64,000 nucleotides of DNA from the NCBI GenBank assembly GCA_964534995.1, contig CAZHSC010000003.1, positions 4,252-68,251 on the forward strand. Reading direction: 5' to 3'. Every line of letters begins with the position of its first letter. Position 1 is the stretch's first letter. Below are positions 22,670-63,142 of this stretch, piece after piece. The DNA is from an uncultured Bifidobacterium sp. GTDB lineage: Bacteria > Bacteroidota > Bacteroidia > AKYH767-A > OLB10. A program made the position numbers and the translations under genes. The notes under the pieces were generated by a model. That model worked only from the letters and a program-made list of their open reading frames with translations. It had not been told where the DNA came from and searched no databases.

Positions 22670-23863
22670 CTACTCAGAACTTTTTAACTGCTCTATTTTT
22701 TCAAGCAGCAGTAACGATTGTTTATAGTCAATAGCCTTTTCCTTCGCAAGTACTATAGTATGCTGACAGGCTTCAAGAGCGGCTTCTTTTTTACCCATCT
22801 TAAAGCAAAGGGAAGCCAGGGTATGGTTGTTTTTTATGTTGTCCTGGATACTCACTGCTTTTCTGGCCCATGTTTCGGCTTTTGCAAGAAGTTCTTTGTT
22901 TGTTATGCGTTCATAAAAGTTGTAAGCTACTTCATTAAGGCGACGGTAATCATCTGCGCAATATTTTTCGATGAAGGGAACAGCTTCCTCCTGGTAATTT
23001 TTCCAGTCCGATCGCATCTTATGCCGGTTGAGGGAGGCATAGGCAATGATTTTTTCCGACAGGTCCAACCCCGATTTCCGAAGTTTTTCAATCATGTTGG
23101 CATAACCAAGGGTGTCGAGTTTTTGTACCCTCGTCATTAATGCTGTATTGTACAGTGAAATTATCTTATTCTCTATACTATCGGCAGTGTATATCCGGGC
23201 GTACTCCGCACGAAGTGCCATCACTCTTTGAAAAGCGGCCATCTCAACTTCTCGGAACATATCGTACATAATTCTCCAGTTTTCGTATTTCAAAAGCTCC
23301 GCATCCGACAAGCCGGACAGGTAACCGTTGATTGTAACCTGGTTGTCAAGCCCGGCCTTTTCCAGCATTTTCATATAGGTGCTGATCTCTTCCATGTTGG
23401 CCGTTTTGTCAAAATATTTCCGTTCAAAGGTCCTGAGTTGTTTGGTGCTGTCCAGGGCGTCTTTGCCCAATTGGAGAAACTCTGGCGAGTATTTACGGCC
23501 TGCGGAACGGTGCATCATTACCGCGTTGTTAAAGTCGAAAAAAACATGGGTTGGAAAATTTTTTATCCGTATTTTTTTGTTGAATTCACGGCCTTCTTTC
23601 TCCATATCCATTTTAATGCAAACAAAATATTTATTGTAAAAGTCGGCCACTGCCGGGTCGGTATATACGCTGTCATTCATAAATTCACAATAATGGCACC
23701 AGGAGGCGTATGCGTGCAGGAAGATGGGCTTTTTTTCGGCTTTTGAAACGCTTATGGCTTCATCAAATGAAATCGCGCGAAAGCGGATACCGTTTTTTTC
23801 TCCGGTCTGCGATAATACTATAAGCGGTAACAGCAGTAATGCAAGCAGGGTGATTTTTTTCAT
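22670..23863 (-). CDS. secreted thioredoxin-fold (DUF255-like) protein with C-terminal TPR-like helical repeats
   Basis: Start adjusted to the internal Met, which gives a signal peptide (MKKITLLALLLLPLIVLSQ). Thioredoxin-like motif (LHAYASWCHYCEFM). Helical repeat C-terminus. Confidence 0.6.
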   Translation of the reverse strand: MKKITLLALLLLPLIVLSQTGEKNGIRFRAISFDEAISVSKAEKKPIFLHAYASWCHYCEFMNDSVYTDPAVADFYNKYFVCIKMDMEKEGREFNKKIRIKNFPTHVFFDFNNAVMMHRSAGRKYSPEFLQLGKDALDSTKQLRTFERKYFDKTANMEEISTYMKMLEKAGLDNQVTINGYLSGLSDAELLKYENWRIMYDMFREVEMAAFQRVMALRAEYARIYTADSIENKIISLYNTALMTRVQKLDTLGYANMIEKLRKSGLDLSEKIIAYASLNRHKMRSDWKNYQEEAVPFIEKYCADDYRRLNEVAYNFYERITNKELLAKAETWARKAVSIQDNIKNNHTLASLCFKMGKKEAALEACQHTIVLAKEKAIDYKQSLLLLEKIEQLKSSE

Positions 23864-23928
23864 GGGGATTATGAATAACAAATATATTAATTCAGGGCGA
23901 GTGCTGTATGATGAATGTATGAATGCCT

Positions 23929-24549
23929 TTAATGGCCGTTGCTGGGTATCAGGCAATAGGGGAGTTGCCAGTCGTTCGCACCGCGCTTGTCAGTTTGTAC
24001 GGCATTGCCCTCACAGTCACAGAGGACTCCGTTGCTGTCTCTTTTCATGATTTTCATTTTTCCTTCGGTCACTGCCTGAACCACCATTTCCCTGATGTCT
24101 GCCAAAGGATGGTGCTTGCTGGCAAGGGCAATCTGTAATCCTGCTTCGTTGTTGTGCAGGTCCATCATGACTGCGGTTGCATCTTGTAAAGCGCCGTCTT
24201 CTTTTTTCCCTTTTTTAAAATCCCTGTAATTTCCTTTTTCATGTGCCTGCCCCAGTTTCCTGGCCGCTTTGCAGCCTATTTCCCGGCCAAGACAGGCCAT
24301 CCAGTATGCATGCCGGAAAGCGTCCAGCATGCCCCCGTGCTCAAAACTGTCGAGTGCCGGATGATGTACCATACGTTTACTTTCCTCCCTTGCTTCGCGG
24401 CTAATGCGATAGGCTTTTTTCGCTTTTAAAAGATGTGTGATGGTCCAGCATTTCTCCGCAGCACTCAGTCTGAAAAATTCTTTCAAAGGCTGTTGGCCTG
24501 ATGTTGGAAAGTAGATGAGCAGGATAAAAAAAAGGAACCGGTATTTCAT
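23929..24549 (-). CDS. secreted hypothetical protein (HHP...RHAYW...DLHNNEAG motifs)
   Basis: Signal peptide (MKYRFLFFILLIYFPTSGQ). Conserved-looking His/Asp-containing motifs of unassigned family. 4-nt overlap with the upstream partner. Confidence 0.4.
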   Translation of the reverse strand: MKYRFLFFILLIYFPTSGQQPLKEFFRLSAAEKCWTITHLLKAKKAYRISREAREESKRMVHHPALDSFEHGGMLDAFRHAYWMACLGREIGCKAARKLGQAHEKGNYRDFKKGKKEDGALQDATAVMMDLHNNEAGLQIALASKHHPLADIREMVVQAVTEGKMKIMKRDSNGVLCDCEGNAVQTDKRGANDWQLPYCLIPSNGH

Positions 24550-35878: not shown

Positions 35879-36460
35879 TTATTTTGTTTCTTTTGATTTA
35901 TCAGGTGCGGAGGCACTGCTTTTCGCGAGCAGGGATTCGAGGGTTGCTTCGAGATTCGCACCTCTGAGTTGACGGGCAATGATAACACCGTTTCCGTCTA
36001 TCAGGTAGTTGGCAGGTATTGAATTGACCCCATACATAGCTGCCGGTTTCGACTGCCATCCTCCCAGATCGCTTACATGATAGGGCCATTCCAGCTTATC
36101 TTTCGCAATGGCCTTGATCCAAGCTTCTTTATTCTGATCGAGGCTTACACTGTAAATGGTAAAGCCTTTTCCATTTTTAAATTTCTGGTCTTTGTACTTC
36201 AGGTAGGCTGCAACAACATGTGGATTTTCCATTCTGCAGGGTCCGCACCAGCTGGCCCAGAAATCAAGAAGCACCATTTGACCTTTGAGGGAACTGAGCG
36301 CAATGGTTTTGCCTTCGGGACTGGTGAATGCCAGATCGATGGCTTTGTTACCCACCGCGGTACCCGTTGAACCTTGTGATCCTTTTGTGAAAGAGGAAAG
36401 TGAGATAGCTGCCAGAGCTAAGAAACCGCTGAAGCCCAGCAGAATAGTGATTTTTTTCAT
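35879..36460 (-). CDS. TlpA/ResA-like periplasmic thiol:disulfide oxidoreductase
   Basis: Signal peptide and thioredoxin CxxC motif WASWCGPC. Confidence 0.75.
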   Translation of the reverse strand: MKKITILLGFSGFLALAAISLSSFTKGSQGSTGTAVGNKAIDLAFTSPEGKTIALSSLKGQMVLLDFWASWCGPCRMENPHVVAAYLKYKDQKFKNGKGFTIYSVSLDQNKEAWIKAIAKDKLEWPYHVSDLGGWQSKPAAMYGVNSIPANYLIDGNGVIIARQLRGANLEATLESLLAKSSASAPDKSKETK

Positions 36461-45139: not shown

Positions 45140-47518
45140 TTGATTATGAAAAAAATGATACTGTTACTGTTGGTTTTATTACTAAAGCCATGGTCTCTGT
45201 ATAGTCAATGTCAGGCCGGTTACGATGAAGTCATTGTCGTTATACAGCCGGACAATTATCCTTCCGAAACTTCCTGGTCGCTCAAAGATCTGTCAGGAAA
45301 TATCCTTGATTCAGGCGGTTCAACAGGTGATACCGTTTGTGTTCCCACTGGTATTTGCCTGATATTTGAAATCCGTGATACTTATGGCGATGGCATCTGC
45401 TGTAACTTCGGCAATGGTTTTTACGCGGTTTATCTCAATGGTACCATTCAGGCAGCGGGCGGACAGTTCACTTACAATGAATTCAGCTATCTAAATTGTC
45501 CTCCCGGTACTCATTGCGGAAGCGCGCTGGCAGCATATGAAGACACCCTTAGCACTTCCTATGGCAGCAGCATCTGGTATACCTTTTCGCCTGACTCTAC
45601 GGGCACTTATAATGTTTCTACCTGTTTTCCTTCCAATAGTTGCGACACACGGCTTTGGATATATGATCACTGCAACGGACTTGTCTGGAACAATGATATG
45701 GCCGGCACTATTTATTACAATGACAGTACCTGCGGTATCCAGGCCTTCATCCCGGCGGGATTACAATCCGGGCAAACCTATTATATCAGGGTGGGGGGTG
45801 ACTCCACCTGTAGTAATGACAGTATCGTATGGCAGATTACCTATGCCGGACCTATTGTAGGGTGTATGGATCCCGCTGCCTGTAATTACAATCCCATCGC
45901 TACTGTCAGCAATGGCAATTGCATCTATCCGGGTGATCCTAATTGTAATTCAGGTCCTGATTTGGTGGTAGATGGAAATACGCTTATTAACTCACTGAAT
46001 ATGGGTGTGGTGAATGGAAACGATGTTTGCCTGATCGGTGAAGGGTGTTTGTCAGGCTACGGAGCCAGAAATGTGATTAATTTCAGTACGCGTATAGCCA
46101 ACATTGGCGATGCGGATTATTACATCGGGCAACCTGCCACCGGAAATTCTCAATTCGTTTTTGATCAGTGCCATGGCCATTGGCATTATGCAGGCTACGC
46201 GATGTATAACATTTACGATACGCTGGGAGTTCCCTTGCAGGCCGGATTTAAAAATGGATTCTGCGTCCTCGATTTACAGTGTTTTGGAGGTACGGCAAAA
46301 TACAGTTGTGGTAACATGGGTATTTCTGCCGGTTGTGCCGACATTTATGGTGCCGGACTCGCTTGTCAGTGGCTCGATATCACCAATATCCCTGCCGGCC
46401 GTTATACACTCGTGGTGCGTGTAAACTGGGATCAGGATCCGGATAAACTCGGACGACAGGAGCAGCGCTTTGATAACAATGTAGCAGCGGTATGTATCAA
46501 TATTACCCGTGATACAGCCAATGTCCCCTCTTTTGTGATACTTCCCAATTGTCAGCCCATTATTGATTGCGCCGGAGATACTTTCGGTTTGGCCGTTAAC
46601 GATTGTATGGGAAATTGTAATGGTTCGCGGGTACGTGGTGACCTTAACATTGACAGTTTGCGGGATGATATTGATATTGATATGTACCTTATTGATATTA
46701 CGGCTCAGCAAAGCGTAATGCCATGCAATGATGTCAATGGTGATAATACCCTTACCGTTACTGACGCTTCTCTGGTAAGTGGATGTATCCGTCAATCCCA
46801 GGGCTCGCATGCACATCAGGGCGGTACTCAAAATACACACAGGCATTGTGAATTTCCCTGGAACATTATCAATACCAATGATACAGTACGGCTAGGAATC
46901 AGTCAGGTAAATCAAAGCCTGAATTACATCGATATTAATATACTGAATCCCGATTGCCGTTTACTGGCCATTGACTTTACCATGAGCGGTGTGGTGATGG
47001 ATTCGGTGGTTTCATTGATCAGTGGCTTTAGTCCCTTTATAAAATGGGATGCAGTAACAGGACGTATCGCCATCCTGGATACGGCCGAAATCTCACTCGG
47101 GAAACAATTGACAGCGCTACCATTTGTGCGTATTTATTTTAGTTCACTTACGAGTACAACCGTGTGCCTTGCATCCATCCATGCCGCTGTGAATGCCGAT
47201 TACGAAGAAACCCTGAAAAGCATCTTCAATGGTTGTGTGACCGTTACAGGCATCAACATTCTCTATCAAAGCGGACTTGTTAAAATCATACCGAACCCTT
47301 CGGAAGGCATCTTTGCCATTTCTACTGATGTGCTTAATGGCGAAAGCGCAAACATCAGCATTCTGGATGCTATGGGCAGATTGATCTATGCTTCCAAAGA
47401 AGTACTCTCCGCGGGCAAAGGAATTTCAGTTGATCTCAGCAAACATCCCAAAGGTGTCTATCTGGTGCGTGTTCTTACCGGGCAACTTGAAGTAACCGAA
47501 CGACTGGTGAAATTGTAA
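45140..47518 (+). CDS. secreted lysyl-oxidase (LOX) family copper amine-oxidase-like protein with dockerin-like Ca-binding module and T9SS C-terminal sorting domain
   Basis: Signal peptide. LOX catalytic-domain motifs line up with human LOX: copper HxHxH (QCHGHWHY), LTQ lysine context (GFKNGFCVLD), GCADIYGAGLACQWLDITNIPAGRYTLVV, and NNVAAVC. Two DxNxDx6D loops (DLNIDSLRDDID, DVNGDNTLTVTD). Sorting domain KIIPNPSEGIFAIS...GVYLVRVLTGQLEVTERLVKL. Confidence 0.75.
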   Translation: MIMKKMILLLLVLLLKPWSLYSQCQAGYDEVIVVIQPDNYPSETSWSLKDLSGNILDSGGSTGDTVCVPTGICLIFEIRDTYGDGICCNFGNGFYAVYLNGTIQAAGGQFTYNEFSYLNCPPGTHCGSALAAYEDTLSTSYGSSIWYTFSPDSTGTYNVSTCFPSNSCDTRLWIYDHCNGLVWNNDMAGTIYYNDSTCGIQAFIPAGLQSGQTYYIRVGGDSTCSNDSIVWQITYAGPIVGCMDPAACNYNPIATVSNGNCIYPGDPNCNSGPDLVVDGNTLINSLNMGVVNGNDVCLIGEGCLSGYGARNVINFSTRIANIGDADYYIGQPATGNSQFVFDQCHGHWHYAGYAMYNIYDTLGVPLQAGFKNGFCVLDLQCFGGTAKYSCGNMGISAGCADIYGAGLACQWLDITNIPAGRYTLVVRVNWDQDPDKLGRQEQRFDNNVAAVCINITRDTANVPSFVILPNCQPIIDCAGDTFGLAVNDCMGNCNGSRVRGDLNIDSLRDDIDIDMYLIDITAQQSVMPCNDVNGDNTLTVTDASLVSGCIRQSQGSHAHQGGTQNTHRHCEFPWNIINTNDTVRLGISQVNQSLNYIDINILNPDCRLLAIDFTMSGVVMDSVVSLISGFSPFIKWDAVTGRIAILDTAEISLGKQLTALPFVRIYFSSLTSTTVCLASIHAAVNADYEETLKSIFNGCVTVTGINILYQSGLVKIIPNPSEGIFAISTDVLNGESANISILDAMGRLIYASKEVLSAGKGISVDLSKHPKGVYLVRVLTGQLEVTERLVKL

Positions 47519-55461: not shown

Positions 55462-56985
55462 ATGAAAAGTGTAGCCGTACTTGCTTTCTTTCTTTTTACT
55501 ACCATTTCTTTGTATGCGCAAAAATACAAAGGGAATGTATGGTGTTTTGGGGATTCAGCTGGAATTGACTGGGCAAATCCTAATTCTCCAATATTTTTTA
55601 GATCGATGATGCATGGAAGGAGTGGCACGGCAAGTATTAGCGATAGTAGTGGGAATTTAATATTATATTCTGGTTATAAGCGTGAACCAGCAAATAATCG
55701 TGGATGGATATTAAATAAATTCCATCAATTAGTACCCAATGGTGACACGTTGTATTTTCAAGATTGGTATCATTCTGTCATCCTTCTTCCAAGTGTAAAT
55801 GATTCAATAATTTATTTGTTTTCAGTTAGTGTTACAAATATTCAAACCTATGGCCTTTATTACAGCACGGTCAATTACAAAGCTAATAGTGATTCCGGAA
55901 TTGTTACACAAAAAAATATCCAGTTAAACAACCTTCCGGCATTTGATGGATTGGCTACTGTCAGGCATGGAAACGGACTGGATTGGTGGGTAATATTTAA
56001 GGATTATGACCCTACACCGCCTTACACTTTAAGCAGTAAATTTTATATCTATTTGGTCGATGCAAATGGGCCCGCACTTCATCATACCCAGACGGTCGGA
56101 ACTGTTTTTAATGATGGAGGAGGGCATTCACTTTTTAATACAGATGGCTCTAAATTTTACTTGTGTACTTGGGGAGGTGCCATTGAATATTTTGATTTTA
56201 ACAGATGCAATGGTTATTTTTCAAATCCAACAGTAATTGAACCAACAAGAAGCGCTCAACCTTATCCTTATTATAACTCATTGGCTTTATCTCCTGATGA
56301 AACAAAGCTGTATGTGTCTGCATATTCTCAATACAACTCATTAGGCGGTACCGATTCTTTGTACCAGTTTGATTTAACAGCGGCTAATATTTCTGTCAGT
56401 AAAACACATATTTATGGCGCACCAAATACTTATGTTGGACTTGGAGCATTAAGAAAGGCTCCTGATGATAATATATACTTAGCTGCTACTTATTTAAATT
56501 ATTACCCGTATCAGGACACTTCTTACAACGTTTATAACACCCACCTTTCCGTCATCAACCAACCCGATTCACTCGGCCTTGCCTGCGATTTTCAACCCTT
56601 CAGCTTTTACCTCGGGGGTGCCAGAACATATAACGGCCTTCCCAACAATCCCGATTACGAACTCGGCGCCTGGGTGGGTTCTCCTTGCGATACGCTGAGT
56701 GTGGGTGTGGATGATTTTCAACCCCCAAAGCAAACGTTTTTTCAAGCCTGGTATAATAGTGAGTGGAATATGATTCACGTAAACGCCTCTAAACTTAAAG
56801 GTAGAACGGGAAGTTTGCGCTTGTTTGATATGGAGGGGAGGTTGGTGTATGAGAAAAAAATTGAGGTGAAAGCGGGAGGGTATGTAACGGGAGAGATACC
56901 GATGAATGCGGTCGTGAATGGAGTTTATCTTGTCAATTTAATAACTGATTCGGAAAGTGTTTCGTCTAAGATTGTTAAATTTTAG
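55462..56985 (+). CDS. secreted beta-propeller (lactonase-like) protein with T9SS C-terminal sorting domain
   Basis: Signal peptide. Propeller-blade motifs (SPDETKLYVSAYS, FNTDGSKFYLCTW). Sorting domain (GSLRLFDMEGRLVYEKKIEVKAGGYVTGEIP...GVYLVNLITDSESVSSKIVKF). Confidence 0.6.
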   Translation: MKSVAVLAFFLFTTISLYAQKYKGNVWCFGDSAGIDWANPNSPIFFRSMMHGRSGTASISDSSGNLILYSGYKREPANNRGWILNKFHQLVPNGDTLYFQDWYHSVILLPSVNDSIIYLFSVSVTNIQTYGLYYSTVNYKANSDSGIVTQKNIQLNNLPAFDGLATVRHGNGLDWWVIFKDYDPTPPYTLSSKFYIYLVDANGPALHHTQTVGTVFNDGGGHSLFNTDGSKFYLCTWGGAIEYFDFNRCNGYFSNPTVIEPTRSAQPYPYYNSLALSPDETKLYVSAYSQYNSLGGTDSLYQFDLTAANISVSKTHIYGAPNTYVGLGALRKAPDDNIYLAATYLNYYPYQDTSYNVYNTHLSVINQPDSLGLACDFQPFSFYLGGARTYNGLPNNPDYELGAWVGSPCDTLSVGVDDFQPPKQTFFQAWYNSEWNMIHVNASKLKGRTGSLRLFDMEGRLVYEKKIEVKAGGYVTGEIPMNAVVNGVYLVNLITDSESVSSKIVKF

Positions 56986-57019
56986 GTGAGAAACAATTTT
57001 AGTTGACAATAGTATTTTT

Positions 57020-57290
57020 TGCTGCTTGCTTCTGGCTTCTGGCTGCTCGCTATTTTTATTTTAAGAATTATACGTTAGAATTAATTTGACTGCGCCTCTT
57101 AAAAACTCTGCGTCTCAGCGACCTCTGCGTGAAACCATTGATGTTGCTTTCCATTCGAAAAAAATAGATTAACGAAGAAAAATTAATTATGATTTTAGTT
57201 GCATAAAAATCTTCGTCTTGATGTAAATTATCCTTTTTACCACGGAGTCACAGAGAATTCACGGAGCAACACGGAGGAGTTTTCATATCA
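57020..57290. repeat. AT-rich intergenic region with short tandem oligo-repeats
   Basis: GCTTCTG x2 plus GCTGCT. CTCTGCGT x2. CACGGAG x3 at roughly 10-nt spacing. CATTAATTC x2. Lies between convergent genes. Confidence 0.3.
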
Positions 57291-57349
57291 CAAGAATTCT
57301 AAACACTTAAAAACAATCATCAACTCATTAATTCAATAATTCATTAATT

Positions 57350-58576
57350 CTATTTTGGTGCAATATATTTTTTTTGCCTCCCTCGGTGGTTGATGTCAAA
57401 GAGCAAGGTGCCCATCACTGCTGTTAATCCATCGGAACGTTGATACCATGCCAGGCGCAAACCAATGCCTTTTGTGAAGTACTTGCGTTGTTTTTTTTGC
57501 TGAGGCAGGAAGTAAAACTCCAGTCCGGCTTTGATGGCATTGAATGCAGAGAGGTCGAAATCGGAAGTATAAAAATGGGCTGCGGGAAGATGTGCTGCTT
57601 TGGTGTTGAAATAATGCGATGCACTTTGCGTGTAGAGGCGGAGGAATGGTCCGGCGTAGAATCGGTTGGTGAACTTATAGCTGAGTTCTTCTTCAAAAGT
57701 GAGGGCCTGGATACCAAAATTATCGGAGTAAAATCCAAACTCACTGCGCAGAATACTTCTCTTGCCGGCAAACCAGGTGTTGTGGAGGCTTGTACCATAT
57801 TTCCACCGTTCATTCGGTAGTTTTTCTACCCGAAGGTCGCCGTCGTTGAAGTACACCCGGTGAAAGGGCGTACTGAGTAATCCCCGCTGATAACTGACCA
57901 AGGGAAGTACACGCATCTGCATCCTTCTGTTGATGATGAAGGAATAGGCCGCCTGAAAATTGTATGATTGTCGCTTGTTTTCAGTAGACCATTCTTTGTA
58001 GCGTAGCCCGGCAGGATATATCAGTCGGACAGCTTTATAGTAATCTGGATTCAATCGTCCCCAGCGGAGATCATCAAAGGAAGCGTCGAAGTAAAGGAGG
58101 AGTTGCCTCCCGCTGCTGTCTTTTTTCGTCGCGTAGCTCACCCGCAGTGGAATTGCCAGATAATCCGATTCGATGGAGATCCCCGTCCCAATGGCCAACG
58201 ATTGCTCTTGTTCGCCTTTGCGTATAAGGGTACCGTTAGCATGGACTCTTCTATCTACCCTGGAGGCGGAGGAAATGACATAATCAATATTGTCGGTGGA
58301 TGCGGAGGTGATGATATCAACACCTGCCTTCCAGTTCAGCGAGAATTGGCTTCCAATGGCATGCGTAAGCTGAAGGCTCGTGGCCTGTACGTTGAGTTTT
58401 TCGGTGCCGGCACCTCCCGTTACCGCGCTATGTGAACCCTCCTGAAAATAGGTAGAGTAGAGGGCTTTGATTTCGGTGGGATCAATATTTTTAAACCGAT
58501 AGAGGCTGTCACGCACCTGCGCTTTGCCTGAAATACCAAGGCAAATCATTCCGGCGATGATGATTTTCTTCCTCAT
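57350..58576 (-). CDS. DUF3570-family outer-membrane beta-barrel protein
   Basis: 408 aa with a signal peptide, which is the typical DUF3570 length. Beta-barrel-like alternating pattern. Last gene of the trx-apbE-DUF4266-DUF3570 operon. Confidence 0.6.
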   Translation of the reverse strand: MRKKIIIAGMICLGISGKAQVRDSLYRFKNIDPTEIKALYSTYFQEGSHSAVTGGAGTEKLNVQATSLQLTHAIGSQFSLNWKAGVDIITSASTDNIDYVISSASRVDRRVHANGTLIRKGEQEQSLAIGTGISIESDYLAIPLRVSYATKKDSSGRQLLLYFDASFDDLRWGRLNPDYYKAVRLIYPAGLRYKEWSTENKRQSYNFQAAYSFIINRRMQMRVLPLVSYQRGLLSTPFHRVYFNDGDLRVEKLPNERWKYGTSLHNTWFAGKRSILRSEFGFYSDNFGIQALTFEEELSYKFTNRFYAGPFLRLYTQSASHYFNTKAAHLPAAHFYTSDFDLSAFNAIKAGLEFYFLPQQKKQRKYFTKGIGLRLAWYQRSDGLTAVMGTLLFDINHRGRQKKYIAPK

Positions 58577-58578
58577 GT

Positions 58579-58827
58579 TCAGTTGCAGCCGCAGCCCCCG
58601 CTCGTTTTTTCTCCTCCCGGAAAAATGGCACCTTCACGGATACTTTCGAAATAATCTTCAAAGGCCCTGATGGGTTTCCCGTTAATCTCCATGGCACGAT
58701 CGTTCAGGTAAGCGCGTTGGTAAGGCTTCACTGTCTGACAACCATTCAGAAACAGGAGTATCCCTGTCGCCGAAAGGAGCAAAGGCACTTTATGCCGGAA
58801 GATTGGTGTACACCTGATTGTTTTCAT
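58579..58827 (-). CDS. DUF4266-family small lipoprotein (C-terminal GGCGCN)
   Basis: Lipobox (LLFLNGCQT). About 60-aa mature domain ending in the Cys-Gly-Cys motif SGGCGCN. The N-terminus overlaps the apbE 3' end, so the true start is probably the internal Met. Confidence 0.55.
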   Translation of the reverse strand: MKTIRCTPIFRHKVPLLLSATGILLFLNGCQTVKPYQRAYLNDRAMEINGKPIRAFEDYFESIREGAIFPGGEKTSGGCGCN

Positions 58828-59695
58828 CTGCTATGACACAATACGTGCCGGGTAATTGCTGAATAAAATGCTGCCCTGCTTCCACACCCATCACATAAAC
58901 GGCGGTAGCCAGGGCATCGCTGAGTTCTGCCGAGGGACTGAATACACTGACACTGCGTATACCCTTAAGCGGTAGTCCCGTTTTCGGGTGCAGGGTATGA
59001 CTGTACTTCTCTCCTTTGTGCATAAAGAATTGTTCATAGTCGCCGGAAGTGGCTACGGCGAAGGTGGGCATGTTTACTTTCATCAATAAACGTTTCTTGC
59101 CGGGATCAGCAATGCCTGTCTGCCAGTTGCTCTCATCCGCTCTCTTGCCCATTACACAGAGATCTCCACTGGCATTGATGACGCCTCCATAAAGTCCCAT
59201 CGCCTTCCATTTTTCACGAACCCTGTCCGCGGCATAGCCTTTGCCAATCGCCGCGAAACTGATCTTCATTCCTCTTTTTTCGAGACAAATGCGGTTGTTG
59301 CCAAGTAAGACCACATGACGAAATCCGGTCCTGGTTAATGTTTCGTTCAGCACATCAGTATCCGGAAAACGACCTTCTTCACATTTAAAATGATATAGTT
59401 TTTTTAATGGACCAATGGTGATGTCGAATGCGCCCTGCGATATCTCTGATATTTTTTTGCAGCGTTCCAGCAAACGATATACCTCTCCGTCGATGGTGTA
59501 AATCTTATGCGCTTCCATGGCGTTGATGCGCGCTGTTTCTGAATCGGAACTGAATTCGGTCAGCAGCTTTTCTATTCGCAAGACTTCTTCTTTACCTGCG
59601 TTAAAAAAAATATCCGCCTCCTGTTCATCAGCGGTGATGACGATAAACTCAAAGGCACTGCCCATCAATTTGCACCGGTGTCTGAACTCTTTCAT
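58790..59695 (-). CDS. apbE: FAD:protein FMN transferase (ApbE family)
   Basis: 301 aa. ApbE motifs (ISFAAIGKGYAADRV; DFQPFSF... GDLCVMG). 4-nt overlap with the upstream thioredoxin gene. Confidence 0.8.
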   Translation of the reverse strand: MKEFRHRCKLMGSAFEFIVITADEQEADIFFNAGKEEVLRIEKLLTEFSSDSETARINAMEAHKIYTIDGEVYRLLERCKKISEISQGAFDITIGPLKKLYHFKCEEGRFPDTDVLNETLTRTGFRHVVLLGNNRICLEKRGMKISFAAIGKGYAADRVREKWKAMGLYGGVINASGDLCVMGKRADESNWQTGIADPGKKRLLMKVNMPTFAVATSGDYEQFFMHKGEKYSHTLHPKTGLPLKGIRSVSVFSPSAELSDALATAVYVMGVEAGQHFIQQLPGTYCVIADENNQVYTNLPA

Positions 59696-60093
59696 GGTTG
59701 GTGAAGCAGTGATTTTATCTCGGAAACTATGGCTGAGCTGCCCTGACGATGGTAAGGTATGATTTTGAAAGTATTTCCCTGAACTAAAACTATTTTTGGA
59801 AAAACCCCTTCCGGATTGAAACGTTCGGCTAATGTGGTGTTGCGTGCTACCTCTTCTTCCGGGAGCGAACGGTGCTGTGGGAAGTCGGCGATGAGAAGTG
59901 ATGTGTTTTGGGAGGTGAAGGATAGAAATATGGAGTCCTGTAGTACGTTTTTTTCAAGATACATGCAGTTCACGCACCAATCCGATCCGGTAAAAATGAT
60001 AAGATTCGGTATATTATCTTTTTGTGCGCTAACTAATGTTGTGTTTGCCAGTAATAGTAATATATAATAAAAGATATATATTAAGTTTCGCAT
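59692..60093 (-). CDS. secreted thioredoxin-fold protein (CxxC)
   Basis: Signal peptide (ILLLLANTTLVSA). Redox motif GSDWCVNCMYL. First gene of the four-gene operon. Confidence 0.65.
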   Translation of the reverse strand: MRNLIYIFYYILLLLANTTLVSAQKDNIPNLIIFTGSDWCVNCMYLEKNVLQDSIFLSFTSQNTSLLIADFPQHRSLPEEEVARNTTLAERFNPEGVFPKIVLVQGNTFKIIPYHRQGSSAIVSEIKSLLHQP

Positions 60094-60179
60094 CGAATTG
60101 TTACAGTTGGTATTCTTAATGAAACTGCACTTATAAATATTTTGAAATTTGATCGTTATAAAGATTTATTTTCGGCTAG

Positions 60180-60350
60180 AATTCCTACTTAAACACAGCG
60201 GGCGCAACGTCGCGAATTCTCGCGATCGCAACGGGTGCAATGGATGAATGGGAAATTTTACGACTACTTTGTCTCCTCTCTTTTTATTCGTTCTTCCTCC
60301 CAGAGAGCGAAGCGAACGATCCTCCCCTCCCCCAGCCAACGCAGAGAGCG
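60180..60350. repeat. GC-rich palindrome-containing intergenic element, possibly related to the 47.6 kb element
   Basis: GCGCAACGTCGCGAATTCTCGCGATCGCAACGG contains the near-palindrome CGCGAATTCTCGCG. CGCAACG-type motifs are shared with 47.55-47.60 kb. AGAGAGCG and CGCAGAGAGCG repeats. Confidence 0.3.
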
Positions 60351-60355
60351 CTCCA

Positions 60356-62032
60356 CTATTTCAATCGTTCACGAATATCGAGGCGATGTTTGCGTGCGGT
60401 ATCCGTAGCGATATCATAACCTGCATCCATATGTCGGATAACGCCCATCGCGGGATCATTGTGTAAGACTCTTTTCAGGCGTCGTGCTGCATCGTCGGTT
60501 CCATCGGCAACGATGACCATTCCCGAATGAATGGAATAGCCCATGCCTACGCCACCACCGTGATGAAGACTCACCCAGGAAGCTCCGCCGGCTGTATTGA
60601 TCAGGGCGTTCAGTATGGGCCAGTCAGCAACAGCATCGGAGCCATCGAGCATTGCTTCTGTTTCGCGGTTGGGACTTGCAACAGATCCGGTGTCGAGGTG
60701 GTCGCGGCCAATAACAATCGGCGCTTTTACTTTTCCGGTTTTTACGAGTTCGTTGAAAAGGAGTCCCGCTTTTTCACGGTCACCTTGTCCGATCCAGCAG
60801 ATGCGTGCAGGTAAGCCCTGGAAGGCGATGCGCTCCTGTGCCATCTTAATCCACCTGTGTAGCCCGGTATCATGCGGGAATAATTTCAGGATGGCTTCAT
60901 CCGTAACTTTTATATCTTCCGGGTCCCCACTAAGTGCCGCCCAACGGAATGGGCCTTTTCCCTCGCAAAAAAGCGGACGAATATAGGCAGGTACAAAGCC
61001 AGGAAAGTCGAATGCGTTTTCTACGCCGCGTTCCTGGGCCCTCCCGCGGAGGTTGTTGCCATAGTCAAAGGTGATGGCCCCTTTCTTCTGCATCTCCAGC
61101 ATCAGCAACACATGTTCAGCCATGGAGTCGTAAGCCATTTCAATGTACCTTGCCGGATTTTTTTCCCTTAATACATTGCCCTCTTCTACCGACAATCCCT
61201 CGGGAAGATACCCCACCAGGGGATCATGAGCCGAAGTCTGGTCGGTAAGCACATCCGGAATGATATTTCTTTCTTTTAGTCGCTGCAGTAATTTTATGGC
61301 AGTGCAAATGATCCCGATCGACTTGTTTTCACCTTTCTTCTTAAACCCGAGGGCGAGGTCGATGGCTTTGTCGATATCCTTTTCGATAAAATCAAGATAC
61401 CTTGTTTCCACCCGCTTTTGCGCGCGCCATTCTTCCACTTCCGCTGCCAGACATACACCTTCGGCCATGGTGATGGCCAGTGGCTGTGCGCCACCCATTC
61501 CTCCCAAACCCGCGGTGACACACAAGCGGCCTTTTAATGTGCCGCCAAAATGTTTTGCGGCAACTGCGTTAAAGGTTTCATAAGTGCCCTGCACGATTCC
61601 CTGCGAACCAATGTATATCCATGATCCCGCTGTCATCTGACCATACATCATCAATCCTTTTTTCTCCAACTCGTCAAAGACCTCCCAGGTAGCCCATTTC
61701 GGTACCAGTTGCGAGTTGCTGAGGATAACGCGTGGCGCATCTTTATGAGTAGGAAGAATAGCTACGGGTTTACCGCTTTGTATCAGTAAGGTCTCATCCT
61801 CGTTCAGGTCCTTCAGGGCCTTAACGATCAGGTGAAAGGCCTCAACATTACGTGCCGCCTTCCCTCTGCCTCCATACACAATCAAATCTTCAGGGCGCTC
61901 CGCCACCTCAGGATCCAGATTGTTATGCAACATACGTAACGCGGCTTCCTGTACCCAGCCTTTGCAATTCAACGTTGTGCCGGTGGGCGTTTTGGTTTTG
62001 GAGAGGTCGAGTTTTTGGGCGGTTTCCTGCAT
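60356..62032 (-). CDS. hutU: urocanate hydratase
   Basis: Highly conserved urocanase sequence from [20 protein letters not shown]... onward. Start placed at the internal ATG at 62030..62032 because the 51-aa N-terminal extension in the track is not urocanase-like. Confidence 0.9.
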
Positions 62033-62053
62033 TGCCTTTTTGATTTTATTTCG

Positions 62054-62061
62054 CAAATTTA
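62054..62061 (-). promoter_or_regulatory. candidate -7 box (TAAATTTG on the minus strand) for hutU
   Basis: The plus strand reads CAAATTTA, 22 nt upstream of the proposed hutU start. Matches TAnnTTTG. Confidence 0.25.
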
Positions 62062-62262
62062 GGTGAAAAGAAGCTGATTTTTCTACTCCCGATAAAGGGC
62101 TCCTGCATCGGGGGTTCCTTGAACAGGGTGCGATGACCGGCTTATTGTTTGGCTTTACCTTCCCTTGACTCCATATCCCAACCACGTTCCTGTTTTCTTT
62201 TTAAAACTTTAATTTTCTTTCCCGGAAAAATGACGGGACGGACTTTTGGGCGGAACGGTAAT

Positions 62263-62427
62263 TTATTTTACTTTCTCTTTGCGATCTGTTTTTGATTTCC
62301 AAGGGCAATGCCGGCAGCCACTCTGGCAGCAATAACCTCTTTTCAGGTGGTATTTTTCGGTAAAAACAATAAATCCTTCCGGCGAAAAGTAATAGTCTTC
62401 TTTGTCAAATTTATCGGTGAATGCCAT
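62263..62427 (-). CDS. unannotated 54-aa Cys-rich protein (CCxxGCxHCPW motif; DUF5522-like)
   Basis: Manual translation gives MAFTDKFDKEDYYFSPEGFIVFTEKYHLKRGYCCQSGCRHCPWKSKTDRKEKVK with a TAA stop. It is missing from the ORF track, probably because it is under 60 aa. Confidence 0.45.
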   Translation of the reverse strand: MAFTDKFDKEDYYFSPEGFIVFTEKYHLKRGYCCQSGCRHCPWKSKTDRKEKVK

Positions 62428-62551
62428 TTTATTGTGTTTAACCTGAATTATTTTTTTGAGGTACGGCTGTTGAAATTATTGTGAATGTTGTAGGTAAGGA
62501 CGCAGCAGGATGTGCATCGAAAATTTACCTTTGCAAAATAACATCATAGTC

Positions 62552-63142
62552 ATGAAAAAGTTTAGCCGTTTAGTAGTATTATCAATAGGACTTACCGGAA
62601 TGCTATTGCAATCAGGTTGTTATGGATCATTTAAACTGGTTGGGAAAGTGTATGAGTGGAATGGCTCCATTGAAGATAAGTTTGTAAGATCTATCGTTTT
62701 CTGGGCATTGTGTATCATCCCCGTTTATCCGGTGGCCGCCTTTGTTGATGCGGTGATTTTTAATTTGATTGAATTTTGGTCGGGTTCAAATCCTGTGTCC
62801 ATGAAAGAAGGACAGTACGAACAGCAAATCGTTCATTACCGAAACAGGACCTATCTGCTGGAAGCAACAAAAAACCGTTTCAGTGTAACTGAATTGAAAT
62901 CCGGTAATAGAGGTAAAACAGTGCAACTGGTATATACTCCGCAAAATTACACCTGGAACCTGGAGCAGGACAATAAACTGATTGCTGTTTCCAGCTTCGA
63001 AAAAGGTAAGTATGGTGAGCTTTCCCTGCGTGTGTTTTCCAAAGACGGAAATTCAAAGCTGCTGCCTCATCCTCAAAACATCAGCTGGACAGCATTTTCT
63101 GAAAGCGAATTAACGGAAACTGCCATGAGGGTCCGGCCCTGA
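62552..63142 (+). CDS. DUF3332-like lipoprotein
   Basis: Start at the internal Met (MKKFSRLVVLSIGLTGMLLQSGC, lipobox). Motifs GCYGSFKLVGKVYEWN and IIPVYPVAAFVDAVIFNLIEFW. Confidence 0.5.
   Translation: MKKFSRLVVLSIGLTGMLLQSGCYGSFKLVGKVYEWNGSIEDKFVRSIVFWALCIIPVYPVAAFVDAVIFNLIEFWSGSNPVSMKEGQYEQQIVHYRNRTYLLEATKNRFSVTELKSGNRGKTVQLVYTPQNYTWNLEQDNKLIAVSSFEKGKYGELSLRVFSKDGNSKLLPHPQNISWTAFSESELTETAMRVRP

Follow-up and report, generated by a model that had tools for sequence, protein, structure and literature searches.

Organization of the locus

The window analysed here is a stretch of 64,000 nucleotides (64 kb) from an uncultured member of the Bacteroidota (contig CAZHSC010000003.1), and the subject of this study is a cluster of four open reading frames (ORFs) within 57350..60093, co-directional and all on the minus strand, that together form a predicted cassette for attaching flavin to an outer-membrane protein. 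The cluster encodes a thioredoxin-like protein, a FAD:protein FMN transferase of the ApbE family (FAD, flavin adenine dinucleotide; FMN, flavin mononucleotide), a small DUF4266 lipoprotein and a DUF3570 barrel protein. A sequence-only reading of the same DNA had claimed four minus-strand genes at this position, and all four are present as ORFs, with the following features.

59692..60093, minus strand: DsbH-like thioredoxin, 133 amino acids (aa), from the ORF call, a CxxC motif and a match to 2JU5
59965..59979, minus strand: WCVNC redox motif, aa 39-43 of the thioredoxin-like protein, read from the sequence
59692..59695, minus strand: ATGA overlap of the thioredoxin stop and ApbE start codons (translational coupling), from the sequence
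58790..59695, minus strand: ApbE FAD:protein FMN transferase, 301 aa, Pfam 241 bits
58579..58827, minus strand: DUF4266 small lipoprotein, 82-aa precursor, Pfam 51.5 bits
58585..58593, minus strand: C-terminal Cys79-Gly-Cys81 (CXC) of DUF4266, a proposed disulfide shuttle, from sequence and conservation
57350..58576, minus strand: DUF3570 barrel, the predicted ApbE substrate, 408 aa, Pfam 86 bits

The ATGA overlap that had been reported between the thioredoxin and ApbE genes is real. A second such overlap, placed near 58576..58579, was an error, as the DUF4266/DUF3570 junction is instead TGA-ac-ATG, with a spacer of 2 nucleotides (nt). In addition, the 3' end of the ApbE gene overlaps the 5' end of the DUF4266 gene by 38 nt, a feature absent from the sequence-only reading.

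Searches with Pfam profile hidden Markov models (HMMs) placed ApbE (PF02424, cut-off 25.6 bits), DUF4266 (PF14086, cut-off 27) and DUF3570 (PF12094, cut-off 25, with a match that spans aa 108-355 only) above their family cut-offs, and the thioredoxin-like protein just below, at 25.9 bits for Thioredoxin_7 (PF13899) and 23.9 bits for Thioredoxin_2 against a cut-off of 27. The family assignments proposed earlier are thus borne out for three of the proteins and fall narrowly short for the fourth, and none of the ORFs was assigned by HMM to an unrelated family.

The thioredoxin-like protein starts with a signal peptide of approximately aa 1-23, cleaved between ...LVSA and QK, and the WCVNC motif that had been claimed for a secreted thioredoxin-fold protein lies where the list above places it; WCxxC is found also in the thioredoxin homologues of the other loci collected. 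The best match of known structure is 2JU5 (DsbH), with an E value of 1.3e-14 over aa 22-130 and the sequence FTGSDWC in common, and the NCBIfam DsbH model gives 73 bits against a cut-off of 190. From the CxxC motif, the 2JU5 match and the sub-threshold NCBIfam score, the protein is predicted to be a secreted thioredoxin-fold protein of the DsbH/DsbD-gamma-like type. Two further redox proteins of related kinds are encoded elsewhere in the window. One, at 22670..23956 on the minus strand and 34 kb from the cassette, is a second DsbH/Thioredoxin_7-family protein of 428 aa (PF03190, 51 bits; PF13899, 43 bits), and the other, at 35879..36460, is a TlpA/AhpC-like redoxin.

For ApbE, solved FAD:protein FMN transferases (among them 1VRM, 7ESA and 4XDT) are matched with E values of 1e-36 to 1e-38 (best 7e-38), and the motifs SGDYE, HxLHPKTG and SDALATA are all found in the sequence.

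The DUF4266 protein carries an LNGC lipobox with Cys30 as the lipidated position, so that the precursor of 82 aa yields a mature protein of 53 aa. It had been described as a 60-aa lipoprotein ending in GGCGCN, of which the lipoprotein and the ending stand and the length does not; close homologues of 82 aa begin at the same start. A C-terminal GGCGCN is shared by 75 of 82 DUF4266 homologues, and the invariant residues are C30 and VKPYQR (C-x-x-VKPYQR) at the N-terminal end and SGGCGC at the C-terminal end. Modelled alone with AlphaFold2, the protein reaches a predicted local distance difference test (pLDDT) score of only 60, and the tail (aa 66-82) stays below 50. This pattern would fit, as a conjecture drawn from the model, a small lipoprotein that becomes ordered only on a partner and that carries a flexible Cys-Gly-Cys tail. 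Natural fusions of DUF4266 to other proteins were sought among 41 homologues and none was found. On a Hymenobacter volaticus plasmid, the DUF4266 protein lacks the Cys-Gly-Cys end and finishes in ...NGLYCA.

The DUF3570 protein has 2481 homologues when clustered at 90% identity, and the two nearest, which are 100% and 84% identical, both come from metagenome-assembled genomes. It has a signal peptide, in line with a hydrophobic N-terminal segment in 80 of 83 homologues, and the mature protein contains no cysteine. The 100% identical database copy (P0001, 399 aa) starts at Met10 rather than Met1, which leaves 58550..58576 outside the coding sequence, and a signal peptide is predicted with either start.

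Conservation of the gene order

Conservation was assessed over 84 loci, made up of 80 from Bacteroidota (one genome per species), three plasmid loci and the window itself. The exact order thioredoxin, ApbE, DUF4266, DUF3570 is found at 59 of the 84, in many Bacteroidota families, and a further 18 loci carry ApbE, DUF4266 and DUF3570 in that order, seven of them with a fused thioredoxin-ApbE gene and others on short contigs; a thioredoxin homologue is present at 68 loci. When the flanking ORFs were clustered all against all, no other family occurred at more than 11 loci, and those that recurred reflect synteny within a genus. No further conserved partner gene was found around the cassette across the 84 loci, and it follows from the lack of another conserved flanking family that the cassette is self-contained.

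These counts place the adjacency far beyond chance, which was the outcome that the sequence-only reading had looked to a neighbourhood analysis to provide. The alternative that the four genes adjoin one another by coincidence has next to no probability left: the identical order recurs across many families, natural thioredoxin-ApbE fusions exist, and the genes overlap or sit 2 nt apart. No point in support of coincidence was found, and the gene-order counts and flank clustering together refute it.

In the proteobacterial version of the cassette the genes are arranged differently. On plasmid pTHAF191d_b of Vibrio sp. THAF191d (L001:4735-9525), a stretch without annotation in the PLSDB gene table encodes a TlpA-like thioredoxin, DUF4266, DUF3570, ApbE and DsbD, in that order, and this is the only locus with an adjacent DsbD gene. 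The Vibrio DUF4266 protein is 154 aa long and is not a lipoprotein, and the Vibrio cassette has one canonical SGAS motif only. On the Fulvitalea plasmid the same four-gene order as in the window had already been annotated by RefSeq, and on the Hymenobacter plasmid RefSeq names the thioredoxin and DUF3570 genes only, the full order emerging from an ORF search. Neither DsbD (PF02683) nor CcdA was found in the 64-kb window by phmmer comparison of all ORFs and Pfam scans of 48 ORFs, and DsbD was likewise absent within 8 kb of the cassette at every one of the 80 Bacteroidota loci.

DUF3570 as the probable substrate of ApbE

The sequence-only reading implied that the arrangement was new. The exact four-gene cluster was in fact published in 2021, in a survey that described clusters of ApbE, DUF3570 (PF12094), thioredoxin-like (PF13899) and DUF4266 (PF14086) genes (Méheust et al. 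2021, eLife 10:e66878, PMC8238504). Among DsbD-containing clusters, 227 carry DUF3570, and 316 clusters hold all four families without DsbD (PMC8238504). In the same study, the DUF3570 protein of Chlorobium luteolum was flavinylated by its cognate ApbE, with the signal lost only when the serines of both motifs were mutated (PMC8238504). The earlier statement that the function had not been established agrees with the authors, who say the same of the physiological role (PMC8238504).

In the window, the strict pattern [ST]GA[ST] is absent from all four proteins, and to this extent the earlier statement that no flavinylation motif is visible holds. It does not hold for the relaxed pattern [ST][GSA]A[ST], a form of search that the sequence-only reading had itself proposed, which matches DUF3570 alone, at aa 90 and aa 102. 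The features of DUF3570 that bear on these sites are as follows.

58298..58318, minus strand: flavinylation motif 1, D87-I-I-T-S-A-S93, with FMN predicted on Ser93, from alignment to D..SGAS
58262..58273, minus strand: flavinylation motif 2, S102-S-A-S105, with FMN predicted on Ser105, from alignment to the second SGAS
DUF3570 peptide for the predicted sites: AGVDIITSASTDNIDYVISSASR
58400..58432, minus strand: clade-specific loop L1, HSAVTGGAGTE, aa 49-59, which holds TGGAGT and lies between model strands 1 and 2

Motif 1 fits the consensus D-x-x-[ST]-G-A-[ST] save for the replacement of Gly by Ser. Among 195 non-redundant Bacteroidota homologues, 183 fit a search pattern with two motifs, and in these the spacing from motif 1 to motif 2 is fixed. 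The first motif is TSAS in 118 and SSAS in 65 of the 183 proteins, and the second is SSAS in 164, TSAS in 15 and SSPS in 4. In one alignment (A1) D87, S91, A92, S93, S103 and S105 are invariant, and in a broader one (A2) D87 is invariant and A92 and S93 are nearly so.

For comparison with the canonical motifs, DUF3570 proteins of proteobacterial type were collected by way of the Vibrio plasmid match, and four of them with two canonical motifs (P0170, P0177, P0178 and P0180) served as references. As a BLASTP comparison of the window protein with P0170 covers the C-terminal half only, the two clades were compared by profile-profile alignment, and hhalign gave a probability of 99.9 and an E value of 2.5e-36. 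A joint MAFFT alignment places ITSAS on D..VSGAS and ISSAS on the second SGAS of the four references, and the same correspondence is found by hhalign.

The sequence-only reading had singled out TGGAGT as the segment closest to a flavinylation motif. The segment is present, at aa 53-58 of DUF3570, but it is not an ApbE site; it belongs to a loop, HSAVTGGxGTE, that is found in 188 of the 195 Bacteroidota proteins and forms an 11-residue insertion relative to proteobacterial DUF3570 in both the MAFFT and hhalign alignments. As a candidate for a third flavinylation site it was rejected, as it has no Ala at position -1, its position 56 is variable, and the loop is missing from the clades in which the motifs are proven.

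According to a review of 2025, the minimal ApbE motif consists of the seven residues D-x-x-[S/T]-G-A-[S/T] and can be transplanted as a peptide tag, a change of Gly to Ala keeps approximately 50% of flavinylation, and Ser is accepted as the acceptor residue with Thr preferred (PMC12052999). Given the tolerance for Ala at the Gly position and the acceptance of Ser, a Ser at the Gly position would be plausible.

Taken at face value, the strict pattern's absence from the four proteins would favour the view taken by the sequence-only reading, in which the substrate of ApbE lies outside the operon or is not known, and none of the four proteins, taken together as a cofactor-handling module, is flavinylated. 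This view is now highly improbable and is effectively refuted, as flavinylation of DUF3570 has been shown experimentally for the family (PMC8238504), and both sites are conserved as [ST]SAS (TSAS and SSAS in the window) and aligned to the canonical motifs. It is well supported that the substrate of ApbE lies in the operon and is DUF3570, with Ser93 and Ser105 as the predicted sites.

The DUF3570 barrel

An AlphaFold2 model of the window DUF3570, built from an alignment of 97 sequences, has 16 long strands, a mean pLDDT of 87.9 and a predicted template modelling score of 0.83, and together with the Pfam match it agrees with the 408-aa beta-barrel proposed in the sequence-only reading. The two sides of the model differ in the length of their connections.

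Long-loop side: L1 48-58, L2 92-106, L4 170-200, L5 233-255, L7 318-344, from the AlphaFold2 model
Opposite side: every turn of 9 residues or fewer, from the AlphaFold2 model

Comparison of the model with the Protein Data Bank (PDB) by Foldseek returned outer-membrane barrels only (OccK/OprD, FadL, TodX, OmpG, BcsC and AlgE), with template modelling (TM) scores of 0.3-0.47. The predicted fold class is therefore clear, that of an outer-membrane barrel, with no close solved relative. Most of the invariant DUF3570 residues sit in L1, L2, L4, L5 and L7, and both predicted flavinylation serines are in L2, on the long-loop side, where residues 99-104 have a pLDDT below 50. As a rule, an outer-membrane barrel has its short turns in the periplasm, along with both termini. 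By this rule, the long conserved loops of the model should face outward or fold into the lumen.

The barrel fold also raises the question of whether DUF3570 serves chiefly as a channel or uptake barrel, with iron or a redox-active small molecule as a possible cargo. The flavins and thiol proteins would then act on this cargo on the spot, for instance through reduction of a bound metal, instead of passing electrons across the membrane. The predicted fold is akin to that of substrate-specific channels (OccK/OprD, FadL and TodX, among others), one DUF3570 homologue also matches the porin family PF13609, and a VIT1 iron transporter is encoded in 25 of the published clusters (PMC8238504). However, structural likeness at these TM scores is generic, no transporter, TonB-system or iron gene is conserved beside the cassette at the 84 loci, and the most conserved residues are those of the loops around the flavin sites. 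We regard this explanation as unlikely.

ApbE without a leader

The window ApbE has only 10 residues ahead of the conserved LMGS, and has neither a signal peptide nor a lipobox; the lipoprotein leader is missing, as shown by an NCBIfam ApbE alignment that starts only at model position 39. A signal peptide hidden behind an upstream start was considered and rejected, as the frame, although open upstream, contains neither a start codon nor a hydrophobic segment. The same holds for most relatives, with 65 of 73 full-length cluster ApbEs of the Bacteroidota set lacking a signal peptide, and the ApbE of the Vibrio cluster is likewise without a leader; one cluster ApbE has a signal peptide of its own. 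Since cytosolic ApbEs are known (PMC12052999), the missing leader does not exclude membership in the ApbE family.

At seven Bacteroidota loci (L044, L047, L051, L067, L069, L078 and L083; for example L044:6324-7694), a single secreted thioredoxin-ApbE fusion of 445-498 aa replaces the two genes, and its two parts are joined at a position collinear with the junction of the split window genes (...NMLKEY..KLMGS). At loci with split genes, the junction takes several forms: the 4-nt overlap recurs in 19 loci other than the window, 9 loci overlap by 8 nt, 3 read TAATG, and approximately 15 leave a gap of 2-7 nt behind a TAA or TAG stop. A programmed frameshift or read-through that would yield a thioredoxin-ApbE fusion from the split genes was rejected, as the junctions vary, show no consistent frame relation and contain no slippery site. 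In two cases the cluster ApbE is itself split: on the Hymenobacter volaticus plasmid it comprises two ORFs (L002:4470-5566), and in a metagenome-assembled genome it comprises three (L006:6886-7791). These are either pseudogenes or assembly frameshifts.

In the published experiment, DUF3570 without its signal peptide was flavinylated and recovered mostly in the insoluble pellet of Escherichia coli cells (PMC8238504). Because ApbE reads a linear motif, because the sites would come to lie on the far side of the barrel or in its lumen, and because insoluble, signal-less DUF3570 was flavinylated, FMN may be added while DUF3570 is still unfolded and the barrel has yet to form; in most of these bacteria this step might take place in the cytoplasm, prior to export. 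A fuller version of this idea, which we put forward tentatively and consider improbable as a whole, is that a truly cytoplasmic ApbE flavinylates unfolded DUF3570 before export by Sec, and that the FMN-bearing chain is then translocated and assembled with its FMNs on the lumenal or extracellular-loop side, such that the barrel would be a flavin conduit across the outer membrane fed by a thiol-disulfide relay through the DUF4266 Cys-Gly-Cys tail. The secreted thioredoxin-ApbE fusions would then mean that modification can occur in either compartment. A signal-less ApbE beside a secreted substrate provides a concrete and testable question on where and when flavinylation happens.

Proposed electron flow through the cassette

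Probably, though well short of certainly, the locus represents the published DUF3570 flavinylation cassette in a Bacteroidota version, in which ApbE flavinylates the barrel and the thioredoxin and DUF4266 proteins relay electrons to the FMNs and from there to an acceptor. The suggestion of an envelope redox module made in the sequence-only reading is supported in this respect, along with its family assignments and operon structure. A hybrid thioredoxin/flavin system has been proposed for the published clusters, with an electron path from DsbD to the thioredoxin-like protein and on to flavin, and the conserved C-terminal CXC of DUF4266 has been suggested to undergo redox cycling (PMC8238504).

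Applied to the window, ApbE would move FMN from FAD onto Ser93 and Ser105 of DUF3570, and the flavinylated protein would then assemble as an outer-membrane barrel. A membrane protein of the DsbD/CcdA type, encoded elsewhere, would keep the secreted DsbH-like thioredoxin in its reduced state, and the thioredoxin would in turn reduce the flexible C-terminal Cys-Gly-Cys tail of DUF4266 by thiol-disulfide exchange. This tail would exchange electrons with the two FMNs, beside which its cysteines are the only ones available because mature DUF3570 has none. The flavins would finally hand electrons to an acceptor located in the outer membrane region or outside it; for a minority of clusters, published work suggests ferric iron in this role. 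The order of the relay, the direction of flow and the acceptor are what we infer from these parts.

The DsbD gene of the Vibrio cluster argues for this scheme, as does the closeness of the thioredoxin to DsbH, which is a reductase-type protein. The conserved GGCGCN end of DUF4266, the predicted flexibility of its tail and the cysteine-free DUF3570 are likewise consistent with it.

Several points weigh against the relay scheme. The electron source has to be assumed, because no DsbD or CcdA gene lies in the window or near the 80 Bacteroidota loci, and the direction of electron flow and the contact between DUF4266 and DUF3570 are putative. The orientation of the barrel would follow from what generally holds for outer-membrane proteins, carried over to a model that is itself a prediction. 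The [ST]SAS sites of DUF3570, with Ser in place of Gly, are predicted sites only, and the Asp of motif 2 lies one residue farther away than in the consensus. Finally, the window ApbE has no export signal, which is at odds with the usual periplasmic flavinylation.

The same parts could also work in reverse, as an envelope sulfhydryl oxidase comparable to Erv2p or QSOX, in which electrons would pass from envelope thiols to the thioredoxin, the Cys-Gly-Cys tail, the FMN and then oxygen or an outside acceptor, with net formation of disulfides. In Erv2p, a flavin-dependent thiol oxidase, the disulfide shuttle is a Cys-Gly-Cys carried C-terminally on a flexible tail, and CXC disulfides are comparatively oxidising. 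The DUF4266 tail, invariant and flexible in the model, resembles this shuttle by analogy, and an adjacent DsbD is missing from most clusters (the 316 published ones and all 80 Bacteroidota loci). On the other hand, the thioredoxin is closest to DsbH, a protein of the reductase type, its best Pfam match is Thioredoxin_7, the thioredoxin-like family of the published clusters, and the membrane partner, in clusters that encode one, is DsbD, which delivers reductant (in Vibrio; PMC8238504). Oxidation by this route is rather doubtful, and the reductive relay is the reading that we prefer.

A module of this kind would join thiol-disulfide exchange and covalent flavin, two major redox chemistries of the envelope, at the outer membrane, and it is widespread, as evidenced by the DUF3570 homologues enumerated above and hundreds of published gene clusters. 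For the window itself, the practical value lies in a correct annotation, with DUF3570 as the probable flavinylated substrate and Ser93 and Ser105 as predicted sites, and pattern searches for flavinylation sites should permit Ser at the Gly position.

Flanking sequences and other genes of the window

Promoter, terminator and Rfam scans of 56900..60500 returned nothing informative. Within the 262-nt spacer between the urocanase and thioredoxin genes (60094..60355), a G+C-rich stretch carries short GCGxxCGCAACG-like repeats, three in number, as well as a 10-nt inverted repeat around EcoRI-like sites; the spacer gave no Rfam match and no match to a promoter of the sigma-70 type. On the 3' side of DUF3570 (57200..57349) there are three TCAxxAAT repeats spaced by 8 nt and two CACGGAG(T/C)(C/A)ACA repeats; a terminator-like hairpin was looked for in this interval and not found.

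Upstream of the cassette, genes for urocanase and a DUF3332 lipoprotein (60356..63142) adjoin it at approximately five loci, represented by L007 and L008 in a comparison of L005-L008. Their recurrence is local synteny of near relatives and lies outside the conserved module. An ORF for a Cys-rich DUF5522 protein of 54 aa is found at 62263..62427. Farther away, at 45140..47518 on the plus strand, a protein of 792 aa has a lysyl oxidase domain (PF01186, 102 bits) together with a C-terminal sorting domain for type IX secretion, a secreted enzyme of the copper amine oxidase type that is unusual in a bacterium.

Comparison with known systems

The closest known systems are the clusters described by Méheust et al., with which the window shares the same four Pfam families, a DUF4266 protein with a CXC near its C-terminus and, in DUF3570, two aligned motif positions, and among which it falls in the DsbD-less subclass. 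The window differs from them in its motifs, which read [ST]-S-A-S rather than [ST]-G-A-[ST], in the additional invariant HSAVTGGxGTE loop of its clade, and in a DUF4266 that is a lipoprotein. Its ApbE has no signal peptide, whereas the ApbE construct tested for C. luteolum is described as truncated for its signal peptide and was cloned like the DUF2271 pair.

With the canonical substrates of ApbE (NqrC/NqrB, RnfG/RnfD, PplA and other FMN-bind domains), the window has in common the enzyme family and the logic of the motif, D-x-x-[ST]-x-A-[ST] with FMN in phosphoester linkage to the last Ser or Thr. In contrast to these, the predicted substrate is an outer-membrane beta-barrel and not a soluble or inner-membrane domain, Ser stands in place of Gly, the acceptor is Ser instead of the preferred Thr, and the ApbE is signal-less.

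The thioredoxin is comparable to DsbH of Chlamydia (2JU5) and the gamma domain of DsbD, secreted and reductase-type relatives with a thioredoxin fold and FTGSDWCxxC. It is not a DsbH orthologue, however, as its score falls far below the equivalog cut-off, and it appears dedicated to the flavin cassette, being fused to ApbE at seven loci.

For Erv2p and QSOX, the resemblance would be a mechanistic one, in that a flavin is combined with a thioredoxin-fold module and with a flexible segment that bears a Cys-Gly-Cys or CxxC shuttle. There is no kinship of sequence or fold, the parts in the window are separate polypeptides, and the flavin would be FMN bound covalently to a barrel, where the Erv domain, which is helical, holds FAD.

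Conduits of the MtrCAB type offer a functional analogy only, as they too combine an outer-membrane barrel, redox cofactors and a periplasmic supply of electrons. In place of multihaem cytochromes within a 26-strand sheath, however, the window is predicted to carry two covalent flavins on the loops of the barrel itself.

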